DNA of 64,000 nucleotides, from positions 65 through 64,064 of the forward strand of contig CAYRPN010000018.1 of assembly GCA_964426135.1 (NCBI GenBank). The letters run 5' to 3'. This document shows, piece after piece, positions 44,835-59,385 of the stretch (position 1 is its first letter; each line of letters starts with the position of its first letter). This DNA comes from an uncultured Phycisphaeraceae bacterium (lineage in GTDB: Bacteria > Planctomycetota > Phycisphaerae > Phycisphaerales > Phycisphaeraceae). The notes below the pieces were generated by a model that searched no databases, was not told the origin of the DNA, and saw only the letters and a program-made list of their open reading frames with translations. Position numbers and translations under genes: made by a program.

Positions 44835-48784
<3,950 letters not shown>

Positions 48785-48788
<4 letters not shown>

Positions 48789-49609
48789 GGCATCCTCCCC
48801 ATGAAGGCGTGGACGATGATGACGTGGGCCGCCACGCAGGTGAGCAGGCTGTAGGTCACGGCGATGTGGACGAACAGCCAGCCCTTGAGCGTCTTCTGCA
48901 AGGCGCGCTGGTAATCCAGTTCATCCTTGACGTAGACGAGCTGCGCCAGTTGGCCGGCCAGTTCCTTTTCGCGGTCGTTCAGATAGCGGTCCAGGTCGCC
49001 GAATTCCGTCTCGTAATTGTGCCGCGGGCGCTTGGATTCGACGATGTGGAACCAGTAGTTGCGGAAGCCCGCGAAGTACTGGTTCAGCCGGCTGCGGTAG
49101 TAGTCGGCGATGGTGGTGGTGCCCGTCTCGGCGACGGACTCGACGACGAGCTTTTCGGCGGCCTCGTGCAGGTTCCGGCGATAAATCGGCATGCGCTCGA
49201 ACATCAGCTCCTCAGCGCACACCGCCAGCCGGCGCGGGAACGACCGGGTGATGAAGATGCCCACCAGGCCGCTGCCGACGACGAGGATGAACAGCACGGT
49301 GATGAGCGTTTCCAGTCCGCCGTTGGGCACCCGGAAGCCGGCATGGGCGCCGAACATGGGAATGGTGAGCAGGCCCAGGTACAGGTGAATCTGAAGCCAG
49401 GTGGAGGATCGCAGGATCGGGAGAAAGGAGAGCTTCTTCCTCAGGTTGTAGGCGGTGAGCACCAGCATGACCGTCAGCAGGCTCCATCCCGTGAAGAACG
49501 CGGTGCGGTTGAGCGACTGGGCCCTGGCCCAATAAAACACCACCACCACCAGTGCGGCAAGCACGGTGAGCAGAATGGCGACTCGGCGACGTTCGGCGAA
49601 GGTACGCAT
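48785..49609 (-). CDS. Five-TM membrane protein with paired His-14-His motifs (candidate dihaem b-type cytochrome)
   Basis: ATG at 49607-49609 (the tracked start is a TTG one codon upstream). TM3 is ..[17 protein letters not shown].. and TM5 is ..[21 protein letters not shown]... In each helix, two His are exactly 14 residues apart. Confidence 0.6.
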
Positions 49610-49660
49610 CAATGATCCTGCAATGCCAATCTGACAAATCGGGCTTTGTGTTCTGATTGA

Positions 49661-50152
49661 TCATTCGTCGGCGCGAAAGCGGATCGTCCCATTTTCCCGC
49701 GCCCAACGTTCGCTAAAGCCAACATGAGAAATCTGATTCTTGCTCTTGTCGAGTTTTCGATCGGCCTCTGCCGCTACGACTTCTGGTTCCAACTCATAAA
49801 CCACTTTAAGTTTCATAGGATCGGATTTGTAAAAGACCGCAAAGTATATTTTCTGGTTTCGGCGCAGTCTTTCAAGCGACTGTTTTCGCTCTGCGGGTGG
49901 ACTGCTATAAACCCTGTCAAGCTGTCCCGTACCACCCTCTTGGCATGATAGGTATTCATAGACCATCTTGCTGTTGGGGTCTCGGGCATCGGGACCGTGT
50001 TTCGACGGCAACAACTCGTGTTTCAGTTGTGTGGCAACGATCAATTCCTTAACAAGTCCAGGCTGCAACAGATTAGGGATGCCTATTCCGCGTGCCAGCG
50101 CTGCTGCCTGTTGAACCAAGTCAATGATTTTGAGATGTGCCTCCCGGCTCAT
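49661..50152 (-). CDS. Candidate type II restriction endonuclease (small, PvuII-like by eye)
   Basis: ATG at 50150-50152 (MSREAHLKII..), overlapping the methyltransferase 3' end by 32 nt, in low-GC DNA. ..GIPNLLQPGLVKELIVATQLKHELLPSKHGPDARD..VYEYLS.. and ..VVYELEPE.. parallel R.PvuII ..[41 protein letters not shown].. and ..IYRLEPK.., recalled from memory. Confidence 0.4.
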   Translation of the reverse strand: MSREAHLKIIDLVQQAAALARGIGIPNLLQPGLVKELIVATQLKHELLPSKHGPDARDPNSKMVYEYLSCQEGGTGQLDRVYSSPPAERKQSLERLRRNQKIYFAVFYKSDPMKLKVVYELEPEVVAAEADRKLDKSKNQISHVGFSERWARENGTIRFRADE

Positions 50153-50945
50153 TGGAAAGCTCCAATAGTGGATGCCAATCTCGCTCTTCAAGCCTCAATT
50201 GACCAAGCTCGACGAAATTCGCATCGAGCTCAAACGCAATGAAATCGCGACCGTGGCGCTTGCAGACAACCGGGCACGTTCCGACCCCCGCGAAAGGATC
50301 CAGAACCAGATCGCCCGGACTGGAACTGGCAAGCACAAGCCGCTCGATCAGACGGATCGGTTTCTGGATCGTGTTCAACGCATCGCGACTGACCAGTTCT
50401 TTGGACTTGTAGGTGAGCTGCTTGATGTCGCCCCATACGTCGCCGGGATTCTTGCCGTCATGATTGAACTTCGTTTTTCCATAGGTGCCGTTGCGCACCG
50501 AAGGAACACGCTCGCAGCGCATGCGATGCTCCAACTCCACCAGTTGCGGCACGCGAATCGCGTCGAGGTTGAAAACGCGAGGGCGCTGTCCCTTGATGAA
50601 ATAGCAAATGATGTCGTGGTTGTTGGTGTAGCTCAACCTGCCCTGCGAAAGTCGGCTGGGTTGGTACCAGACGATTCGGGACCGCAGGTTCAGAAAGGGT
50701 CGATAGTCGATGAAATCAACGCAGTCGTGCTTGCCGAAAAGATAAAGCGCGCCGCCGGGCTTGAGCTTGGATGCGAACCGGCGAATCAACCCCAGGTTGA
50801 ACTGCTGAATGTCGTCGACCTGATCCCAATCATTGGCCGTGACGCCATAGGGTCCGTCGCACACGACGAGATCGACCGATTCGTCATCGATCTGCTCGAT
50901 CAGTTCGAGCGCGTCGCCATGATGGATGGTGTTTCGCTCGATCAT
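50121..50945 (-). CDS. Site-specific DNA methyltransferase, beta-class N4-C/N6-A family
   Basis: ATG start 3 nt after the upstream gene's stop. Motif IV-like DGPYG (..LVVCDGPYGV..) precedes motif I DPFAGVGT, which is the beta-class permutation. ~274 aa, in low-GC DNA. Confidence 0.85.
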   Translation of the reverse strand: MIERNTIHHGDALELIEQIDDESVDLVVCDGPYGVTANDWDQVDDIQQFNLGLIRRFASKLKPGGALYLFGKHDCVDFIDYRPFLNLRSRIVWYQPSRLSQGRLSYTNNHDIICYFIKGQRPRVFNLDAIRVPQLVELEHRMRCERVPSVRNGTYGKTKFNHDGKNPGDVWGDIKQLTYKSKELVSRDALNTIQKPIRLIERLVLASSSPGDLVLDPFAGVGTCPVVCKRHGRDFIAFELDANFVELGQLRLEERDWHPLLELSNEPGGTSQNH

Positions 50946-50948
50946 GGT

Positions 50949-52724
50949 CTACCTCGACAGCCATCCCGCAAAGTTCTCCGTGTTCCGCATGTCGATGCGC
51001 TTCAGCGCGTCGTGCGGGCAGGCTCGTTCGCAGCTTGGCGTGACGAGCTGCTCGACGCACAGATCGCATTTGGTGGCCTTGACGATGGGGGCGTTGTTCT
51101 TGTCGAGGACAAGGCCGCCGGACTCGTCGCGGATTTCCACCATGCGGATGTTGTTGTACGGGCAGCTGTTGGCGCAGGTGGCGCAGCCGATGCACGTCAG
51201 GTCGTTGACCACGACGCTGCCGGTGGACGCCTCGCGGCCGATGGCGCCGGTGGGGCATCCGATCATGCAGACCGGGTCGGAGCAGTGCATGCACGCGTTG
51301 GCGACCATGTAGTGGTCGTACTTGGGGCCGTGGCGGATGAACTTGGGGTTGTTCTCGTGGGCGGCGGCACAGGCTCGGACGCAGTCGTCGCAGCGGGTGC
51401 AGCGGTCCAGGTCGATGATCATCGTGGCGGTGCCGTTGATGAAGCGGTTCTCGACGAGGAACTCGAGCAGGCCGGTGTCGATCTGCTTGCGGGTATTGAC
51501 GCGGGCGACGGGCAGCGACAGTTCGCGTTCCGGCCTGGGCTTGTCGCCGTCCTTTGCGTGCTCGGGGTCGGGCGTCCTCGCCTGCACCTGGACCATCGCG
51601 GGCAACTGCTCGGGCTTGAGCATTTCCAGCACGTACTTCTCGACGATCGGCGACGGCACGCGCAGGATGTCGACATAGCCCACCGCGCGGAGCGTGTTCT
51701 GCAGCGGCACCACGTCCTTGCTGCGCCAGTTGTGGGCCAGTTCCTGGAACCCGTAGATTCCGCCGGCTCCGGTGTAACTGAGCGTGCGGTGGCCGTTGCC
51801 CTCGCGCTTCGAAACGCGGGCGAAACCGGAGCGGATCAAGATCAGGCCGTTGGGATAATCGCCTTCCGACGCGATGACCGGTTCCTGCGCCAGGCGTTCG
51901 GCGGCGCCCTGCTGGGCGAGCGTCTTGTACGTGGCGTACCACTCGAATCCGCCGTGCGTTTCGAACTCCGTCTCGTCGGCGACTTCCTTCAGTTGCTTTT
52001 CATCGAGGTGGGCGAAGATGGGCGTGTCGCGCAGGAAACTCTGCAAAGCGTTCTTGCGGTAGAGCGCGTCGATGTGGCGCTTCAGCGCCTCGTCGCGGCG
52101 ACGGATGTCGCGCAGGCCCTGCCAGCGGATCTCCAGAAGCTCCGCGTCGCTCTCGGCCACGATCGTCGCCGTGCGCGGGATGCGCCCCAGCGCCGCCAGT
52201 TCGCCGAAAAGCGAACCCTCGCCAAGCTGCACCGTCTTGTGCTTGCCGATGACGCCCGGCACGTCCTGCAGGAACACGCGCACCGTGTCGCCGCTGCTGC
52301 GCTGAGCGGTGCCGTCGGCCTTGGCCTGCTCGTACTTTTTCAGGTTGCGCACTTCGGGCAGGCGCGGGTTGGCCCACCACTGCGACAGCGCCTCCCACCA
52401 GCCCTTGCGCTTGCGCGTCTGCCGGCCCAGCACCGCCGGCGGCAGACTTTCGAGCACCACGCGCACTTTCCCCTTCAGAACCAGAAACGCCGAGTGCCCG
52501 TAGTCGCCTTCGCGCACCACCAGGTCGCCCGTCTTGTATTTCACCAGTCGCGTGTCGTTGGCGAGGATGCCCGACAGCGGCGTCGACTCGGGGAACTTGT
52601 TCGGATCGATGCTCTTGAACGGCTCGACCTTGAGCAGGCGATTGACATCCGCCTCGGTCATGTCGGGACCGAACGGCACGTCCCACCGTTGGGGTCGATC
52701 GATGGCGATGAGCGTTTCAGCCAT
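50949..52724 (-). CDS. Cytoplasmic protein with two cyclic-nucleotide-binding domains and a DmsB/NrfC-like four-cluster [4Fe-4S] domain
   Basis: ATG start and no signal peptide. cNMP-like beta-rolls (..GDLVVREGDYGHSAFLVLKGKVRVV.., ..VIASEGDYPNGLILIRSGFARVS..). Cluster motifs are CTRCDDCVRAC, CMHCSDPVCMIGC, CIGCATCANSC and CDLC..C..C. Confidence 0.8.
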   Translation of the reverse strand: MAETLIAIDRPQRWDVPFGPDMTEADVNRLLKVEPFKSIDPNKFPESTPLSGILANDTRLVKYKTGDLVVREGDYGHSAFLVLKGKVRVVLESLPPAVLGRQTRKRKGWWEALSQWWANPRLPEVRNLKKYEQAKADGTAQRSSGDTVRVFLQDVPGVIGKHKTVQLGEGSLFGELAALGRIPRTATIVAESDAELLEIRWQGLRDIRRRDEALKRHIDALYRKNALQSFLRDTPIFAHLDEKQLKEVADETEFETHGGFEWYATYKTLAQQGAAERLAQEPVIASEGDYPNGLILIRSGFARVSKREGNGHRTLSYTGAGGIYGFQELAHNWRSKDVVPLQNTLRAVGYVDILRVPSPIVEKYVLEMLKPEQLPAMVQVQARTPDPEHAKDGDKPRPERELSLPVARVNTRKQIDTGLLEFLVENRFINGTATMIIDLDRCTRCDDCVRACAAAHENNPKFIRHGPKYDHYMVANACMHCSDPVCMIGCPTGAIGREASTGSVVVNDLTCIGCATCANSCPYNNIRMVEIRDESGGLVLDKNNAPIVKATKCDLCVEQLVTPSCERACPHDALKRIDMRNTENFAGWLSR

Positions 52725-52887: not shown

Positions 52888-53892
52888 TTACGGCTGCGGC
52901 TTGCCCTTGTAGGCGTCGGCCTTGGGGATCAGCGGATCCACCGCCGCCAGCTTGCTGCCGTCGTGGTTCTCCACGAACTTCTTGGCGACCTCGGCCACTT
53001 TGCCGGGCAGTTGCTCCAGCAGTTCCTGGCTCAGCTTCAGCGAACCGTCGTCGCGGCGCTCCAAGCCCTTCATCAGAGCGGAAAGCTCGGCGATGTCCAC
53101 AGCCTTGACCACCGCATCCAGATCATCCACCCGGGTGCGGATGCGGTTCAGAATGGCGGCGCGATAGTTGCCCTTCTCGGTGATCTTGCCCGCCGCGTAA
53201 AGCGACATTTCCAGGTCGACCACCCGGCCCACCACGTACATCACACGCTTGCGCTCCTGCGTGGTGTCCTTGTTCTCCGGGCCGGCGAAATAGTTGTGCT
53301 TCACTTCGCCGTGCGACCACGACACCAGTTCAAAGTCGCTGCTGGCCTTGTGGCCGCCGACGTTGACCAGTTGCTCGTTGGGCACGAGGTGGCAGGACAG
53401 GCAGTTCTTGGCGATCAGGTAGACGCGGTCCTTGCGGATCATGCCGGCCGCATCCGCCTTCTCGTGGCGCATCTTCTTGTTGTCGGCGCTCTCGTCTTCC
53501 TTCTTCTTGCCGGCGCCGTAGTCGTTGTGAATCTTGACCCAGTCGGCGGCGGCGCCGTGGCACGATTCGCAGGACACGCCGGAAATCGTGGTCAGATCCT
53601 TCGGATCGGCGCCCTTGGCGGTCGAGTGGCACTCGACGCAGAAGCCCGTCTGGCGATAGCTGCGGGACAGGCCCAGCTTCTCAGCGATGGGCCGGCCTTC
53701 CTTCAGCTTGTCCAGGGTGCGGAAGTGGTGCGTCTTGCTCCAAGCTTCCGTTTCCTTCTGGTGGCAGTTAATGCAGTTGCCGCCCTTCTCATCGTTGCCG
53801 ATCACCTTGGAGTGATCGATCGAGATGATCTGAGCCTGTGCGGCAACCGCAAACATCAACATAACGGCAGGGACGAGCATACGGGAGATCAT
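52888..53892 (-). CDS. Periplasmic tetrahaem c-type cytochrome (c554-like)
   Basis: ATG start, signal peptide, and four CxxCH motifs (CINCH, CVECH, CESCH, CLSCH). Confidence 0.8.
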   Translation of the reverse strand: MISRMLVPAVMLMFAVAAQAQIISIDHSKVIGNDEKGGNCINCHQKETEAWSKTHHFRTLDKLKEGRPIAEKLGLSRSYRQTGFCVECHSTAKGADPKDLTTISGVSCESCHGAAADWVKIHNDYGAGKKKEDESADNKKMRHEKADAAGMIRKDRVYLIAKNCLSCHLVPNEQLVNVGGHKASSDFELVSWSHGEVKHNYFAGPENKDTTQERKRVMYVVGRVVDLEMSLYAAGKITEKGNYRAAILNRIRTRVDDLDAVVKAVDIAELSALMKGLERRDDGSLKLSQELLEQLPGKVAEVAKKFVENHDGSKLAAVDPLIPKADAYKGKPQP

Positions 53893-54082: not shown

Positions 54083-55396
54083 TTACGCATCCAACACGAC
54101 TTTCGTTTTCGGCTGCCCCACGCAGGTGAGGCAGGAGCCCTTGTCCGGGGCAGCGCCCGGCGGGTTAGCGTAACCGACTTCGCCTTCCTTCACCGCGACG
54201 ACACAAGTGCCGCAGTTGCCGGCCCGGCAGCCGGAGTCCAGCGTCACACCGTTCGCCTCGCCCAGTTCCAGCAGCGAGGTGACGGCACCGGTCCACTTGC
54301 AGGTCTTGCCGCTCTTGGCGAATACGACTTCCAGCACCGCCCCGGTCGGCGCTGCTGCAACTTCCGCAGCCGGCGCCGCCGCCTTGTTCACCTTCTTGAC
54401 GCTGGCGGGTCCGAACGCTTCGAAGTGAACGCGCTCATCGGGAACGCCCCATTTTTCCAGGTCGCCCACGATGGATTCCATGAACGGGCCGGGGCCGCAC
54501 ATGTAGTAATCGAAGTTATTGGAGGGCAGCGTTTTCTTGAAGAGCTCGACGCTGACGCGCTCGGCGTGCTGGTAGTCGCGCTCCAGCACGTCGGTCTTGC
54601 CGGGCTTGCTGTAGCACACGTGCAGGTGCAGCTTGTCGTGCTGCTTGGCCAGGGCTTCGATGTGGTCCTTGAAGGGATGCTCGCTGCGGTCGCGCACGCC
54701 CAGGAACCAGTACACATCGCGCTTCAGCGTGCCGTCGGCGGTGAGCAGGTTGATCATCGACAGCACCGGCGTGATGCCGATGCCGCCGCCGATGAGCACG
54801 ATCCCGCCCGGCGTGTTCTCGACATCCAGGAAGAAGTGGCCTCCCGGCGCCTTGCAGTCGAGGATGTCGCCTTCCTTCACGAAGTCGTGGAAGAAATTGG
54901 AAACGAGACCCGGCGGCACTTCCTTGTCCTTCGGAGCCGGCACGCGCTTGATCGACACGCGGTAGTAGTCGGAGCGCGGGGCGTCCGACAGCGAGTAGCA
55001 GCGGATCGTCGCCTTGTCCTTGCCGGGGATCTGGAGTTGAAAGGTGAGATACTGCCCGGGCTTGAACAGCGGCAACGGCCGGCCGTCGTGAGGCTTCAGA
55101 TAGAAGGAACAGATATCGCCGGGCTCCGGCACCCGCTTGGCGACCTCGAACTTGCGGATGCCGCTCCAACTGGCGACCTGCTGCTCCGCCTTCTTGCGCT
55201 GGGCGCGGGCGGCTTCGATGCGCTCCTCCAGCAGGCGGATCGACAGGTCCTGCTGCCGAGCCTCGCGGCGAGTGCGCGTGAAGTTGCCGAACACCAGCAC
55301 CAGCGCCTGCAACAGCACCAGCGCCACCAGGGCCCCGCCTGCCAACATCATGAGACTGTGTGCACTCACAAAAACCCCTGTTCGTCTCGACAACAT
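54083..55396 (-). CDS. Membrane-anchored FNR-type flavoprotein with C-terminal plant-type [2Fe-2S] ferredoxin domain
   Basis: I prefer the ATG at 55394-55396 (the tracked start is a TTG at 55471; further ATGs lie at 55351 and 55348). N-terminal TM (..LAGGALVALVLLQALVLVF..), RCYSLS (FAD), GGGIGITP (NAD(P)H) and the C-terminal ..CRAGNCGTC...C.. are present. Confidence 0.8.
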   Translation of the reverse strand: MLSRRTGVFVSAHSLMMLAGGALVALVLLQALVLVFGNFTRTRREARQQDLSIRLLEERIEAARAQRKKAEQQVASWSGIRKFEVAKRVPEPGDICSFYLKPHDGRPLPLFKPGQYLTFQLQIPGKDKATIRCYSLSDAPRSDYYRVSIKRVPAPKDKEVPPGLVSNFFHDFVKEGDILDCKAPGGHFFLDVENTPGGIVLIGGGIGITPVLSMINLLTADGTLKRDVYWFLGVRDRSEHPFKDHIEALAKQHDKLHLHVCYSKPGKTDVLERDYQHAERVSVELFKKTLPSNNFDYYMCGPGPFMESIVGDLEKWGVPDERVHFEAFGPASVKKVNKAAAPAAEVAAAPTGAVLEVVFAKSGKTCKWTGAVTSLLELGEANGVTLDSGCRAGNCGTCVVAVKEGEVGYANPPGAAPDKGSCLTCVGQPKTKVVLDA

Positions 55397-55500
55397 TTCA
55401 CAACTGGGCAGTTGCGCCGATCTTAACTCACGACCCGCGCCGATGAAAGGCGAATCGATCCGGTCCTTCAATGTCGGCGTTTTCGCCGAGCAAATTCCGT

Positions 55501-55635: not shown

Positions 55636-57216
55636 TCAGAACTTGAACCGGTACTCCGCACGGATGCCGGACAAATCATCCGCCGCTTCGCGCAGGGCGT
55701 ACATGGCGTCCACGCGGAAGATCATGGCGTTGTTGATCGGAATCTGGAAACGGACGCCGAAGCCCAGTTGATCGCCCGGGGCGCTGGCGTCGTTGCCGTG
55801 TTTGCGGAGGCCGGCGATTTCGAAGACGAGCTGCTTGTCCAGGTTGAACAGCAGTTCGAGTCCGGCTGCGAAGCCCACGACGTCCCGGCCGGTGTCGTCC
55901 ATTTTGGGGAAGCCGGTCAAGCCGTCCGTCTCGAAGAGGATGCCGGTGTTCTTGAGGATGCCGCCGGCGCCGGCGTCACGCGCGAGGGACTGCGGCCGGT
56001 CCTTGCTGAAGAAGAGGTTGACGTAAGGAATGACGGTGGATGGATTCTCGGTGATGAAGGAGTTTTCGAGCAGCAGGATGACGCCGTCGGCCGTGCGGGC
56101 CGCGCCGCCCGCCGGATCCTGGCCCACCGCCGCCACCACGCGGACGGAGTTGCTCAGCCAGCCGAAGTATCGCTTGGTGAACGCGCCGGTGAAGTTGTGG
56201 TAGCTCAGGTCGGCGCCGGTGTTGTCGTCGATGTAGCCGTAGCCGAACTCGTAGTAACCTTCGGACGCCTCGATGAAGGTGGTGATGCCGTAGAGATGGA
56301 CGCCGTGGTTGGCGCCGGGGACGGCATCGGTGGTGACGCGGTCCCACGCGGCGAAGAAGGTGATGTCGAAGTTGCTGATGTCGAGCGCGGTGGAGTGCAT
56401 GGCGGGCAGCGTGATCGCCATGCCGGCAAACGCGTCCTCAACCCACACGCCGTTCTGGAACAGCAGCGGAATGATGCCCAGGGCGATGGGCATGTCGAAC
56501 TGGGAGTAGGTGTTGCTGAAGCTGGAGAGGATGCTGCCGACGTCGCCTTCAAAGAAGATGGTGTCGAGGTTGCCGTCCAGTTCCCACTCGGTGCCTTCGT
56601 TCTTGGTGCCGCCGAGTTCGACGCGGCTGAAGTTGCCGTTCTTGTCCAGCGGGCGCATGAAGGCGTGGATGCGCTCGGTGCTGGTGATCTTCAGATCGAG
56701 GTCGAGATTGAGGCGGGCGGCGATGATGGCCTGCTCGTCCCTGCCGTTGTCGTTGTAGGCGATGGCGGTTCGGAAATCGCCGGAGGCGAGGAACTGCGGC
56801 TCGACCGGGTTGGTCTCGCCCAGGAACGTCATCGGTTTCTGGAACGGGCCGAAATTGTACATCTCGCGTCCCAGTTCCAGGAGCGGGCGCTGGGTGGCGT
56901 TCTTGTACTTGGCGCCGTAGATGTCTTCCTGCGCCTTGGCGTCGTAGGGGACGTCTTCGTACTTCGGATCGCTCTTGAACACGTCGGGGTTGAAGGGCAC
57001 CTTCTTCGCCTCAGGCGACATGTCCAGCCCGGCGCCGCCGTGGCCGGCGCCGTGATCGCCGCCCTTGGCGTCCGCCAGCGCGAACAGGCCGGGGTAGGAC
57101 ACCGGGTCGCCTTCATCGGCGCGCACCGCCGAAGGAGCGACAGCCAGCGCTGCCGCGATTGAACAGGTGCGAACGAAACGGCTTCGACGAAGCCCCGACA
57201 GTTCCCTGGTTGTCAT
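55636..57216 (-). CDS. Putative outer-membrane beta-barrel protein (porin-like)
   Basis: ATG start, signal peptide ending ..APSAVRA, and alternating hydrophobic patterns throughout. The C-terminal ..GIRAEYRFKF ends in the aromatic signature of OMP beta-barrels. No named family recognised. Confidence 0.55.
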   Translation of the reverse strand: MTTRELSGLRRSRFVRTCSIAAALAVAPSAVRADEGDPVSYPGLFALADAKGGDHGAGHGGAGLDMSPEAKKVPFNPDVFKSDPKYEDVPYDAKAQEDIYGAKYKNATQRPLLELGREMYNFGPFQKPMTFLGETNPVEPQFLASGDFRTAIAYNDNGRDEQAIIAARLNLDLDLKITSTERIHAFMRPLDKNGNFSRVELGGTKNEGTEWELDGNLDTIFFEGDVGSILSSFSNTYSQFDMPIALGIIPLLFQNGVWVEDAFAGMAITLPAMHSTALDISNFDITFFAAWDRVTTDAVPGANHGVHLYGITTFIEASEGYYEFGYGYIDDNTGADLSYHNFTGAFTKRYFGWLSNSVRVVAAVGQDPAGGAARTADGVILLLENSFITENPSTVIPYVNLFFSKDRPQSLARDAGAGGILKNTGILFETDGLTGFPKMDDTGRDVVGFAAGLELLFNLDKQLVFEIAGLRKHGNDASAPGDQLGFGVRFQIPINNAMIFRVDAMYALREAADDLSGIRAEYRFKF

Positions 57217-57357: not shown

Positions 57358-59385
57358 TCACTTCACTTCGAACTCGACCGTGTACGGATGGATGTCGATC
57401 ATCCACTCGTTCATTGCCTGTTCCATTTCCTTCGTCGCGCCGACGAACTTCATGAAGTAGATCGGCTCCGCCCGGCTTCGCAGCCGGACCGCCAGCCTGT
57501 ACACGCCAGGCTTCGTCAGCAGCTTGCCCGGCACCGAGTAATTCGCTTTCCGCGTCCCCAGCGGGGGAATCGAACGAGCCTCCATGCGAACCGTCGGCGG
57601 GTGGTTGATCACTGTCGTCGGCGTGCCCGCCGGCCGCAGGAACGGAATCTGGTCCGCGTCCACGTTCACGGGCAGGTACATTTCGCGGTCGGTGCCCTTG
57701 ACGTTCGTCGTGAGGAACTTCGACTGCAGATTCACCAGTTGATCGTCGTGGGCCAGCTTGCCCGCGCGGACATCGAACGAGTGCAGGTCCGCCATGTCGC
57801 CGTGGCTGTCCACGTAACCCGTTTCCCAGATGTTCTTGCCTTCGGGATCGATCAGGGCGACGTTCAGCCAGATTTCAGGCTGGGCGCCCAGCGAACCGGA
57901 GGGCAGGTTGTGGCCCGGGTCCGTGTTCGTGATCTTGTACTGGAAGCTCAGGCCGCGGCCGAGCGCCGGCTTGCTGTCGAAGAACGGGCCATCGATGCGC
58001 GAGCCGTTCTCCATGACCGCCAGGCGATCCTTCTTTTTCTTTTCCAGGAGCTTGATGTTCTCATCGAGGATCGCGCGGGCGTCTTCGCGGTCGAACGAAT
58101 CCTTCCAGTCATCGGGGAACGCAACCTTCAGCGTGCCCTTGTCCACTTTCTCTTCAAACTCCGGCGTTCCCCAGCCCGCGCGGAAATCGAAGCGGAGCCA
58201 CTGCTCCATGGTCCACTTTTCCGCCTTGGGGTTGTGCGGGAAAATGCCGGGGTGGGCAATCGGGTAGCCGGGGCCGTAGAAGGAGTGGTTCGCGTGCTTG
58301 CGCTTGGCGGTGGGCTTGCCGCCGACGACCGCCGCCGGAGCCTCGGCATAACCGGCGGGCACGCCGGGGGTGTGGCCCATGTGGCAGTCCTGACACTGGA
58401 TGCCCTGTTTCTTGGCGGGCGATGCGCGGTACTGATCCCATACCACTTCGAGCTTGATGCCGATGTTCACCGCGACCTGGTGGCAGGAGACGCAGAACTC
58501 GCTCTTGTCCAGTTGCTCGAACTTGATGGCCTGGGCGTGGACCTTGATGCCGGGGCCGGTCTTGTCGCCCTTGGGGTCCAGCGTGGTGATGTTCTTGATC
58601 GCTTCCTGCAGGCCGGCGCCGTCGCTGGTGCCGAGCACCGCCGCGTGGATGTTGCCCACTTCGATCCGGCGTTCGCCGTTGACCTTGGCGTACTGCGACT
58701 CGACGCGGTGGCAGGTGATGCAGGTGATGCCCTCGCGCGACACCTTGGTGCGCTTCCACAGGGGCAGATCGCGCTCTTCCTTCAAGGCTGTGCCGACGCT
58801 GGCGTGACACCGCATGCAGAAGTAACCGATCGTGCCCTGCGCCAGGTCGTTGATCTTCTGCTCGAACTTATGAAACATCGGAGAGATGGAGGCGTAGGCA
58901 TGGTTGCTGACGCGCCACTCATCGTAAATCTGCTGATGGCAGGCGGCACACTTGCTGGCGCTGGGGTAATTGTCTTCCGCATAGAGAGCCGTGTGCGGAT
59001 CGCCTTCCACAGCCGGCGTCACCTTGCTGCCGTCGGGCAGCGTGGTGGGCTGTGCCTTGGGCGGCGCGGGCTTGGGCGGGTTCTTCGCGTCATCCTCGTC
59101 ATCGAGGAGCGCGCCGGGCTTGGGCTTGGCGGGCGTGGCGGGTGTGGCGGGCGTCACCGGCTTGGCGGGGACATCCTCGTCATCGAGCAGGCCGCCCTTG
59201 GCCTCGGGCTTCTTGGGCTCGGGGGCCTTGGGTGCTGCCGGCGTGGCGGGCTTCTTGGGCACGTCCTCGTCGTCGAGCAGGCCGCCCTTGGGCTTCTCCT
59301 GCGCGAACGCCAGGCCGCCGGCGAAGAGCGCGGCGATGGCCGCGATGCTGAGGCAGTACCGGAAAAACGAAGTGCGGGTGCTCAT
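57358..59385 (-). CDS. Secreted pentahaem c-type cytochrome with N-terminal Pro/Lys + acidic repeats and a ~300-aa non-haem C-terminal domain
   Basis: ATG start and signal peptide. Three GG(L)LDDEDVP.KP-type repeats are present, with five CxxCH (CAACH, CMRCH, CITCH, CVSCH, CQDCH). Confidence 0.8.
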   Translation of the reverse strand: MSTRTSFFRYCLSIAAIAALFAGGLAFAQEKPKGGLLDDEDVPKKPATPAAPKAPEPKKPEAKGGLLDDEDVPAKPVTPATPATPAKPKPGALLDDEDDAKNPPKPAPPKAQPTTLPDGSKVTPAVEGDPHTALYAEDNYPSASKCAACHQQIYDEWRVSNHAYASISPMFHKFEQKINDLAQGTIGYFCMRCHASVGTALKEERDLPLWKRTKVSREGITCITCHRVESQYAKVNGERRIEVGNIHAAVLGTSDGAGLQEAIKNITTLDPKGDKTGPGIKVHAQAIKFEQLDKSEFCVSCHQVAVNIGIKLEVVWDQYRASPAKKQGIQCQDCHMGHTPGVPAGYAEAPAAVVGGKPTAKRKHANHSFYGPGYPIAHPGIFPHNPKAEKWTMEQWLRFDFRAGWGTPEFEEKVDKGTLKVAFPDDWKDSFDREDARAILDENIKLLEKKKKDRLAVMENGSRIDGPFFDSKPALGRGLSFQYKITNTDPGHNLPSGSLGAQPEIWLNVALIDPEGKNIWETGYVDSHGDMADLHSFDVRAGKLAHDDQLVNLQSKFLTTNVKGTDREMYLPVNVDADQIPFLRPAGTPTTVINHPPTVRMEARSIPPLGTRKANYSVPGKLLTKPGVYRLAVRLRSRAEPIYFMKFVGATKEMEQAMNEWMIDIHPYTVEFEVK

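Follow-up and report, generated by a model that had tools for sequence, protein, structure and literature searches.

The question raised by this locus is how electrons might cross the inner membrane to reach a periplasmic multihaem c cytochrome, and what part is played in this by a small membrane protein encoded directly upstream of a decahaem cytochrome gene. The DNA analysed (the window) comprises 64,000 nucleotides from an uncultured Phycisphaeraceae bacterium (GenBank assembly GCA_964426135.1, contig CAYRPN010000018.1, positions 65 to 64,064 of the forward strand), and the two genes concerned, ptdF and ptdG, are the last members of a redox gene cluster, ptdABCDEFG. A 2024 preprint (bioRxiv 10.1101/2023.11.21.568154) names the family PtdF and labels it 'ferric reductase-like'; the label is given at annotation level and the function is called completely unknown, with no analysis of ligands, topology or packing. 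Further detail on PtdF was sought in the supplements of the preprint and none was present, and in a literature search the ptd name was found in this source only. The analysis presented here indicates that PtdF is probably a divergent transmembrane di-haem b-type cytochrome, which would carry electrons from cytoplasmic NAD(P)H/iron-sulfur (Fe-S) donors to periplasmic multihaem c cytochromes. The gene and its junction with ptdG are located as follows:

ptdF: 48785..49609 (stop codon included; open reading frame (ORF) as called 48788..49609), minus strand, 274-amino acid (aa) membrane protein with five transmembrane (TM) segments, predicted di-haem b cytochrome
ptdF/ptdG stop/start overlap: 48785..48788, minus strand, ATGA

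Translation of the minus strand from the ATG at 49609 to the stop codon at 48787..48785 yields the 274 aa product. The plus-strand ORF that lies antisense to it (48809..49615) is the usual shadow frame of high-GC DNA, and the minus-strand gene was taken to be real because homology and synteny back only that frame. The original prediction held that two histidines stand 14 residues apart in each of TM3 and TM5; the translation confirms a spacing of exactly i/i+14 for His75 (codon 49387..49385) and His89 (codon 49345..49343) and, likewise, for His248 (codon 48868..48866) and His262 (codon 48826..48824), and both an AlphaFold2 model and hydropathy place these pairs in TM3 and TM5, respectively. 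Conservation among homologues had been named as a point at which this reading could fail. All four histidines are invariant in alignments of 44 and of 120 homologues (37–94% identity), and in an alignment of 347 sequences that includes distant paralogues His75, His89 and His262 are each present in 347/347 and His248 in 346/347, while a fifth histidine of TM5, His267, is not conserved. Because the four histidines are invariant among homologues, the pattern stands far above chance. The other (near-)invariant positions of the protein are G41, R57-K58-K59, W71, G114, G117, the FERIP and KDxLDY motifs, K242 and W244.

The AlphaFold2 model, which was built on the 44-sequence alignment (pLDDT 92.5, pTM 0.83), contains helices at residues 2–31, 36–59, 68–90 and 98–129, a helical insert at 137–209 and a long helix at 212–269 that includes TM5. 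The segments of the protein and their positions in the window are listed below:

TM1 (residues ~8–31): 49517..49588, minus strand, running from in to out; peripheral helix packed against the back of TM3 (couplings ~180 degrees from the His face)
TM2 (residues ~36–59): 49433..49504, minus strand, flanking helix that bears the invariant G41; the basic loop after it, R57-K58-K59, is cytoplasmic and likewise invariant
TM3 (residues ~68–90): 49340..49408, minus strand, W71, His75 (cytoplasmic side) and His89 (periplasmic side)
TM4 (residues ~98–124): 49238..49318, minus strand, flanking helix whose invariant G114 and G117 lie level with the inner His pair
Cytoplasmic helical insert (residues ~125–239, 115 residues): 48893..49237, minus strand, conserved FERIP, LDRYL and KDxLDY motifs and a near-invariant His188
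TM5 (residues ~240–269): 48803..48892, minus strand, K242, W244, His248 (cytoplasmic side) and His262 (periplasmic side)

Across the alignment, Lys+Arg counts of 3.0 for the N-terminus and 3.7 for the TM2-3 loop, together with a high count for the large insert, contrast with low counts for the C-terminus and for the loops TM1-2 and TM3-4. This charge distribution therefore argues for an N-in/C-out orientation with His75 and His248 on the cytoplasmic side, His89 and His262 on the periplasmic side, and the insert in the cytoplasm, so that the topology prediction which had been proposed as a check puts one histidine of each helix near either face of the membrane. The periplasmic loops that remain are only 8–11 residues long. 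A separation of 14 residues corresponds to a helix rise of ~21 Å (14 × 1.5 Å), which agrees with the haem–haem distance in cytochrome b.

Packing of the helices was assessed by mean-field direct coupling analysis (DCA) of the 347 sequences (effective sequence number, Meff, 282), with the top 150 couplings being compared with chance expectation for each pair of helices:

TM2–TM5: 13 couplings, 3.0 expected by chance
TM3–TM4: 10 couplings, 2.6 expected by chance
TM2–TM3: 7 couplings, 2.3 expected by chance
TM1–TM3: 6 couplings, 2.3 expected by chance
TM4–TM5: 5 couplings, 3.4 expected by chance
TM3–TM5: 1 coupling (L80–L256, mid-membrane, between the two His levels), 2.9 expected by chance

The coupling registers are antiparallel for the four pairs of a TM2-TM3-TM4-TM5 ring and parallel for TM1–TM3, as the topology predicts, and the two analyses thus agree. 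On TM5, measured from His248, the residues coupled to TM2 lie at ~+86 degrees and those coupled to TM4 at ~-108 degrees; on TM3 the contacts with TM4 lie at +72 degrees, the mid-helix contacts with TM2 at -60 to -100 degrees and those with TM1 at ~180 degrees, while the His faces themselves are at 0 and -40 degrees. From these angular positions, which are indirect evidence, it follows that the His faces would point into the core of the TM2-3-4-5 ring and that the two His helices would be diagonal to one another, which bears directly on the concern that the histidines might lie on non-adjacent helices or face the lipid: the couplings place TM3 and TM5 across the ring with their histidines directed toward its core. 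Diagonal His helices with core-facing histidines, as predicted here, are the arrangement of bis-His di-haem bundles, and two invariant His pairs ~14 residues apart on parallel TM helices, the hallmark of the generic b-type four-helix bundle of this kind, are found in PtdF. The initial suggestion of a dihaem b-type geometry is therefore upheld by invariance, topology and coevolution-based packing, with haem binding as its predicted consequence. Many of the couplings fall within the cytoplasmic insert, which we propose to be a docking platform for an Fe-S donor.

The family is widely distributed. A first homologue search retrieved 189 sequences of ~270–280 aa, unnamed or annotated as 'hypothetical', mainly from metagenome-assembled genomes (MAGs) of Phycisphaerae, other Planctomycetota and Verrucomicrobiota, and a hidden Markov model (HMM) search of 1.84 billion representative proteins produced 3104 clusters at E<=0.001, of which 521 reached E<=1e-30. 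When species genomes were scanned, 214 PtdF loci were confirmed, in hosts that include Planctomycetota, Verrucomicrobiota, Alpha- and Gammaproteobacteria, SAR324, Myxococcota and Hydrogenedentota, among others, most of them heterotroph-like bacteria of the Planctomycetes-Verrucomicrobia-Chlamydiae (PVC) group. Some relatives stem from records labelled Pedosphaera, Rariglobus and Hwanghaeella. In the Planctomycetota sample, 35 of the 151 genomes had a match at E<=1e-5, of which ~11 were full-length orthologues. Clusters of ptd genes have been reported from Alphaproteobacteria of oxygen-deficient zones, Gammaproteobacteria, Nitrospirales and Planctomycetes (bioRxiv 10.1101/2023.11.21.568154).

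The immediate neighbours of ptdF are conserved. Its stop codon overlaps the ATG of ptdG, as the original prediction had noted when it proposed coupled expression with a decahaem gene, and a Shine-Dalgarno-like GGAGG motif lies within ptdF, 5 nt 5' of that ATG. An overlap of this type with the cytochrome gene spans 4 nt in 47/75 related loci and 1 nt in nine more, and is thus conserved in 56/75 loci across phyla. The gene that follows in the window does hold exactly 10 CxxCH motifs, and so does the ORF directly downstream of ptdF in 65/67 loci, while the ORF directly upstream carries exactly two CxxCxxCxxxC (4Fe-4S) motifs in 68/73 loci. Distant PtdF paralogues (262–340 aa), in which the four histidines are kept at i/i+14, are similarly found directly upstream of 7- to 12-haem cytochromes.

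Such pairing also occurs elsewhere in the same genome. In a second, minimal module with overlapping gene ends (C1:176841..179544, minus strand, = L111:2842..5545), the gene for a 380-aa FNR-like FAD/NAD/2Fe-2S protein is followed by that for a PtdF-like four-His protein of 262 aa, which matches the family profile at E 1e-12, and then by one for a heptahaem c cytochrome of 308 aa. In another planctomycete, a continuous ORF encodes an 877-aa fusion (L108:4758..7391, minus strand; G098:C37) in which N-terminal TM segments, FHA, FAD_binding_6, NAD_binding_1 and Fer2 domains precede a C-terminal PtdF-like domain, and the gene is followed by one for a 690-aa decahaem protein. By its predicted domain order, this fusion is a NOX-like single chain in which the dehydrogenase precedes the haem domain. 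A word-based search of the protein database for further FNR-PtdF fusions found the query alone. A second type of fusion, represented by one protein (P0199, 843 aa), joins PtdE to PtdF exactly at the C-terminus of PtdE, and was weighted lightly because a lost stop codon at overlapping genes could explain it. An apparent PtdF-cytochrome fusion (L113:2776..5073, plus strand; G067:C24) was rejected as an assembly or masking artefact, its frame being bridged by a run of N (X in the translation), and long open frames in two further genomes (G054 and G021) were not accepted as fusions, there being no domain evidence for them.

In the window, seven redox genes, all on the minus strand, follow the order ptdABCDEFG, with a restriction-modification (R-M) pair as the sole interruption. 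Besides ptdF these are:

ptdA: 57358..59385 (as called 57361..59385), minus strand, 675-aa secreted pentahaem c cytochrome (5 CxxCH)
ptdB: 55636..57216 (as called 55639..57216), minus strand, 526-aa secreted protein with no Pfam match, in the 'porin' position of the cluster
ptdC: 54083..55396 (as called 54086..55471), minus strand, TM-anchored FNR-like flavoprotein with FAD_binding_6, NAD_binding_1 and a C-terminal 2Fe-2S domain
ptdD: 52888..53892 (as called 52891..53892), minus strand, 334-aa secreted tetrahaem c cytochrome (4 CxxCH), Cytochrome_C554-like
ptdE: 50949..52724 (as called 50952..52724), minus strand, 591-aa cytoplasmic protein with cyclic nucleotide (cNMP)-binding domains and two C-terminal 4Fe-4S motifs
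ptdG: 44835..48788 (as called 44838..48788), minus strand, 1317-aa decahaem c cytochrome (10 CxxCH)

The cluster has exactly the gene order and content of ptdABCDEFG in the preprint (pentahaem, porin-position protein, FAD/NAD(P) oxidoreductase, tetrahaem, cNMP/two 4Fe-4S protein, membrane protein, decahaem), and it is by these features that PtdF was identified with the family named there; syntenic alphaproteobacterial loci are 42–46% identical. A verrucomicrobial porin-multihaem cytochrome cluster (PMC5615132) was considered as the same system and rejected, as it includes an octahaem protein and its porin has 20 strands or more, and a preprint on extracellular electron transfer (EET) in peat mentions no inner-membrane b cytochrome. 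The start of ptdC is ambiguous (ATG at 55396 or TTG at 55471); the N-terminus of its product forms a hydrophobic helix (LMMLAGGALVALVLLQALVLVF), and the NAD(P)H module would therefore itself be anchored in the membrane. PtdG consists of an N-terminal cytoplasmic domain with eight cysteines, one TM helix and a periplasmic haem domain that is split by a long repeat-rich insert. The cysteine domain (residues 1–96; 48500..48788, minus strand) carries C25, C34, C44, C50, C61, C71, C81 and C88, all of which are kept in four phylogenetically distant orthologues; it has no Pfam match and may hold an Fe-S or Zn site facing the cytoplasm. Given this cytoplasmic domain and the TM helix, PtdE, PtdF and PtdG would all meet at the inner membrane.

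Together, these features suggest the following route. TM2 to TM5 of PtdF would form a four-helix ring holding two haems, one ligated by His75 and His248 near the cytoplasmic face and the other by His89 and His262 near the periplasmic face, ~21 Å from the first. Electrons would enter from PtdC (NAD(P)H/FAD/2Fe-2S) and pass to the two C-terminal [4Fe-4S] clusters of PtdE, which as the proposed direct donor would bind PtdF at its 115-residue insert and basic TM2-3 loop. Having crossed the membrane by way of the two PtdF haems, they would exit to the membrane-anchored periplasmic decahaem PtdG and move onward to PtdD, PtdA and the PtdB porin. Outward flow is favoured because the membrane potential assists the export of electrons and NAD(P)H is a strong donor, and the recurrent pairing of the family with FNR or Fe-S modules points to an NAD(P)H-to-multihaem route that bypasses quinones. 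The analysis shows the motif and its invariance, the topology by charge bias, the helix packing by coevolution and the conserved partner genes; haem binding, the identities of donor and acceptor, the outward direction and the independence of quinones are what we infer. A more far-reaching proposal, which we put forward tentatively and hold to be somewhat doubtful, is that PtdC-PtdE-PtdF-PtdG may constitute a quinone-independent, NOX-like NAD(P)H:multihaem-cytochrome c oxidoreductase that feeds a porin-cytochrome conduit and is gated by cyclic nucleotides through PtdE, and that the four-His/multihaem pair may serve in many phyla as a general modular entry point for EET, distinct from CymA, ImcH, CbcL and NetBCD.

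Several results weigh against the assignment of PtdF as a di-haem b cytochrome with cytoplasmic donors. Pfam and NCBIfam scans of the PtdF of the window gave no match, no curated model reaching its threshold, and in a scan of the genome the protein scored 13.9 bits on DUF4405 (PF14358), for which the cut-off is 26.7. Alignment by hhalign of PtdF profiles (120 and 347 sequences) with 11 planctomycete proteins containing a ferric-reductase domain (FRD) gave probabilities of 3.1% and 8.3%, a Foldseek search of the whole PtdF model against the PDB returned no match at E<=0.001, and a profile search of PDB sequences yielded just coiled-coil noise in the cytoplasmic insert. In addition, DCA is noisy at the Meff obtained, each of the two fusions (the 877-aa protein and P0199) is a single sequence, and the R-M cassette parts ptdE from ptdF in the strain of the window.

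In the comparison with DUF4405, cytochrome b561-type and ferric reductase families for which the original prediction had called, weak profile matches to DUF4405, Ni_hydr_CYTB and Ferric_reduct were detected, in favour of the di-haem reading, though none attained its threshold and the hhalign result was not significant. When 44 members were scanned singly, sub-threshold matches to these three models were obtained in 29/44, 20/44 and 10/44, respectively, covering either the TM2-TM3 hairpin or TM5; recurrent matches of this kind were confined to di-haem families, and the three belong to one Pfam clan of di-haem cytochromes. For DUF4405, the best relative reached 23.6 bits and the PtdF of the window had no match at E<=1; for Ferric_reduct (PF01794; cut-off 28 bits) the window protein had no match, orthologues scored at most 17.9 bits and one paralogue 26.1 bits; and for Ni_hydr_CYTB (PF01292; cut-off 30.1 bits) no PtdF member exceeded 16.7 bits. 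The hhalign alignments to FRD proteins were coherent for only one His helix. The PtdF profile (run with --max) retrieved neither the cytochrome b nor the FRD proteins of its own genome, and PtdF has no Pfam cytochrome b match. Two genes of this genome, which score 29.3 and 27.1 bits on PF14358 (L087:1294..2097, plus strand, C3; L089:1369..2418, plus strand, C2), were rejected as canonical DUF4405 comparators, both being cytochrome b genes; the latter lies between a Rieske-like ORF and a CxxCH-containing ORF. Because PF14358 scores cytochrome b above threshold, its weak match to PtdF was treated as clan-level evidence only. Since profile, hhalign and structure matches all fall below significance, PtdF was filed in no curated family; it is a separate, unmodelled family that would work like the di-haem b cytochromes and is probably distantly related to them.

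DUF4405 proteins, which bind haem b as shown by pyridine haemochromagen analysis (PMC11334425), share with PtdF four conserved TM histidines in a central bundle; the HMM similarity, which covers the TM2-TM3 hairpin, is weak and below the gathering threshold, and DUF4405 has six TM segments with four central histidines (PMC11334425) whereas PtdF has five and the 115-residue cytoplasmic insert. Their partners also differ, being ApbE and flavinylated proteins for DUF4405, and Fe-S and multihaem c proteins for PtdF.

Proteins with a PF01794 domain (NOX, FRE, MsrQ and STEAP), as generally understood, resemble PtdF in their N-in orientation, their His pairs in TM3 and TM5 at a spacing of 13–14, their basic cytoplasmic TM2-3 loop and their cytoplasmic NAD(P)H/FAD donor. 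Unlike them, PtdF has no sixth helix and no significant profile-profile match to them, its flavin module is separate with added Fe-S relays (or, in one paralogue, N-terminally fused), and it would pass electrons to a multihaem c cytochrome, where theirs go to O2, Fe(III) or MsrP. In the bc1 and b6f complexes, cytochrome b is likewise known to carry i/i+14 His pairs on two parallel helices of a four-helix bundle, with flanking helices that bear conserved glycines; PtdF differs from it in its opposite orientation, its different partners and its lack of Qo/Qi-site elements. Finally, the combination of a periplasmic multihaem c protein, a membrane b cytochrome and a cytoplasmic Fe-S protein is familiar from complexes of the Tmc, Hmc and DsrMKJOP type of sulfate reducers and from Geobacter CbcL, which illustrate how PtdF would operate. 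However, the membrane subunits of these systems are of the NarI/HdrE or FdnI type, with no detected sequence relation to PtdF, and their cytoplasmic partners are HdrD-like, in contrast to the cNMP-binding ferredoxin and FNR that accompany PtdF.

Other functions for PtdF were weighed against this evidence. It appears unlikely that PtdF, as a di-haem b cytochrome, oxidises quinol or reduces quinone in the manner of NarI, FdnI, PhsC or CbcL and so links the menaquinone pool to PtdG, with PtdE and PtdC being regulatory or separate. The Ni_hydr_CYTB matches in 20 of the 44 members and the annotation of one homologue by the Joint Genome Institute (JGI) as 'thiosulfate reductase cytochrome b subunit' do point in this direction, and most of the characterised inner-membrane entries to multihaem conduits are generally known to be quinol oxidases. 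Nevertheless, almost every locus (68/73) has cytoplasmic Fe-S or FNR-plus-2Fe-2S proteins next to the family member, in one fusion the PtdF-like membrane domain shares a chain with an FNR-Fer2 module, the most conserved surface of PtdF is cytoplasmic (the RKK loop, FERIP, K242 and W244), and a quinone-site motif could not be recognised, although no such site was modelled specifically. With respect to direction, the parts of the ptd system alone fix none, and the reported occurrence of ptd clusters among lithotroph-like MAGs, those of nitrite-oxidising Nitrospirales included (bioRxiv 10.1101/2023.11.21.568154), would suit an inward flow, in which periplasmic or extracellular electrons pass through multihaem cytochromes to the cytoplasmic Fe-S/FNR proteins and reduce NAD(P)+ or ferredoxin. 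This we regard as distinctly improbable: such flow would run against the inside-negative potential and uphill to NAD(P)+ and would need a source of energy, for which the cluster seems to have no module, and the hosts are mostly heterotroph-like PVC bacteria.

Least probable seems a function of the four histidines without redox haem, with PtdF handling or exporting haem for maturation of the neighbouring cytochrome (CcsA/CcmC-like) or transporting a metal. A multihaem cytochrome gene always adjoins that of PtdF, and very weak Cytochrom_C_asm matches were obtained in 3/44 members (best E 0.019), which would favour this reading; however, periplasmic loops of just 8–11 residues leave no room for a WWD haem-handling domain, and the conserved extra domain of PtdF is cytoplasmic. 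Moreover, its fusion to and adjacency with FNR/Fe-S modules fit electron transfer and not haem export, while two bis-His levels ~21 Å apart cannot make one metal site.

The transmembrane di-haem b cytochrome is a known kind of protein, and the ptd cluster and the one-line label for PtdF were already available from the preprint. What is new is that the ligands are given explicitly, along with the topology and a bundle supported by coevolution; new also are the architecture of five TM segments plus a cytoplasmic insert and the failure of all curated models, together with the recurrent pairing of the family with FNR or Fe-S modules. In bacteria, the known routes into multihaem conduits begin at the quinone pool. 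The PtdF family is nearly always wired between cytoplasmic Fe-S/flavin proteins and a multihaem c cytochrome, and if the two b haems are bound as predicted, it would represent a widespread and uncharacterised inner-membrane electron gate. The di-haem reading would provide the functionally unknown ptd cluster with a testable core mechanism, and with its four ligands, its topology and its proposed docking surfaces identified, PtdF lends itself to straightforward site-directed experiments.

In two respects the cluster of the window is unlike that of the preprint, being broken by an R-M cassette and encoding an enlarged PtdG. The cassette is located as follows:

Type II R-M pair, foreign: 49661..50945, minus strand, N6/N4 methylase (50121..50945) and a 176-aa ORF (49661..50191) with no Pfam match

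The GC content of the pair is 0.556 and 0.50, compared with 0.62–0.68 for its neighbours. In the closest relative (locus L103, with a PtdF that is 94% identical), only a spacer of 196 bp lies between ptdE and ptdF, which marks the cassette as an insertion specific to the strain of the window; the two genes usually abut. As regards PtdG, ~800 residues made up of Pro/Thr-rich and other repeats (residues ~350–1150) lie between haem motif 6 (342) and motif 7 (1160) of the window protein, which measures 1317 aa as compared with 575–755 aa in three orthologues with called genes and 1277 aa in the 94%-identical relative.

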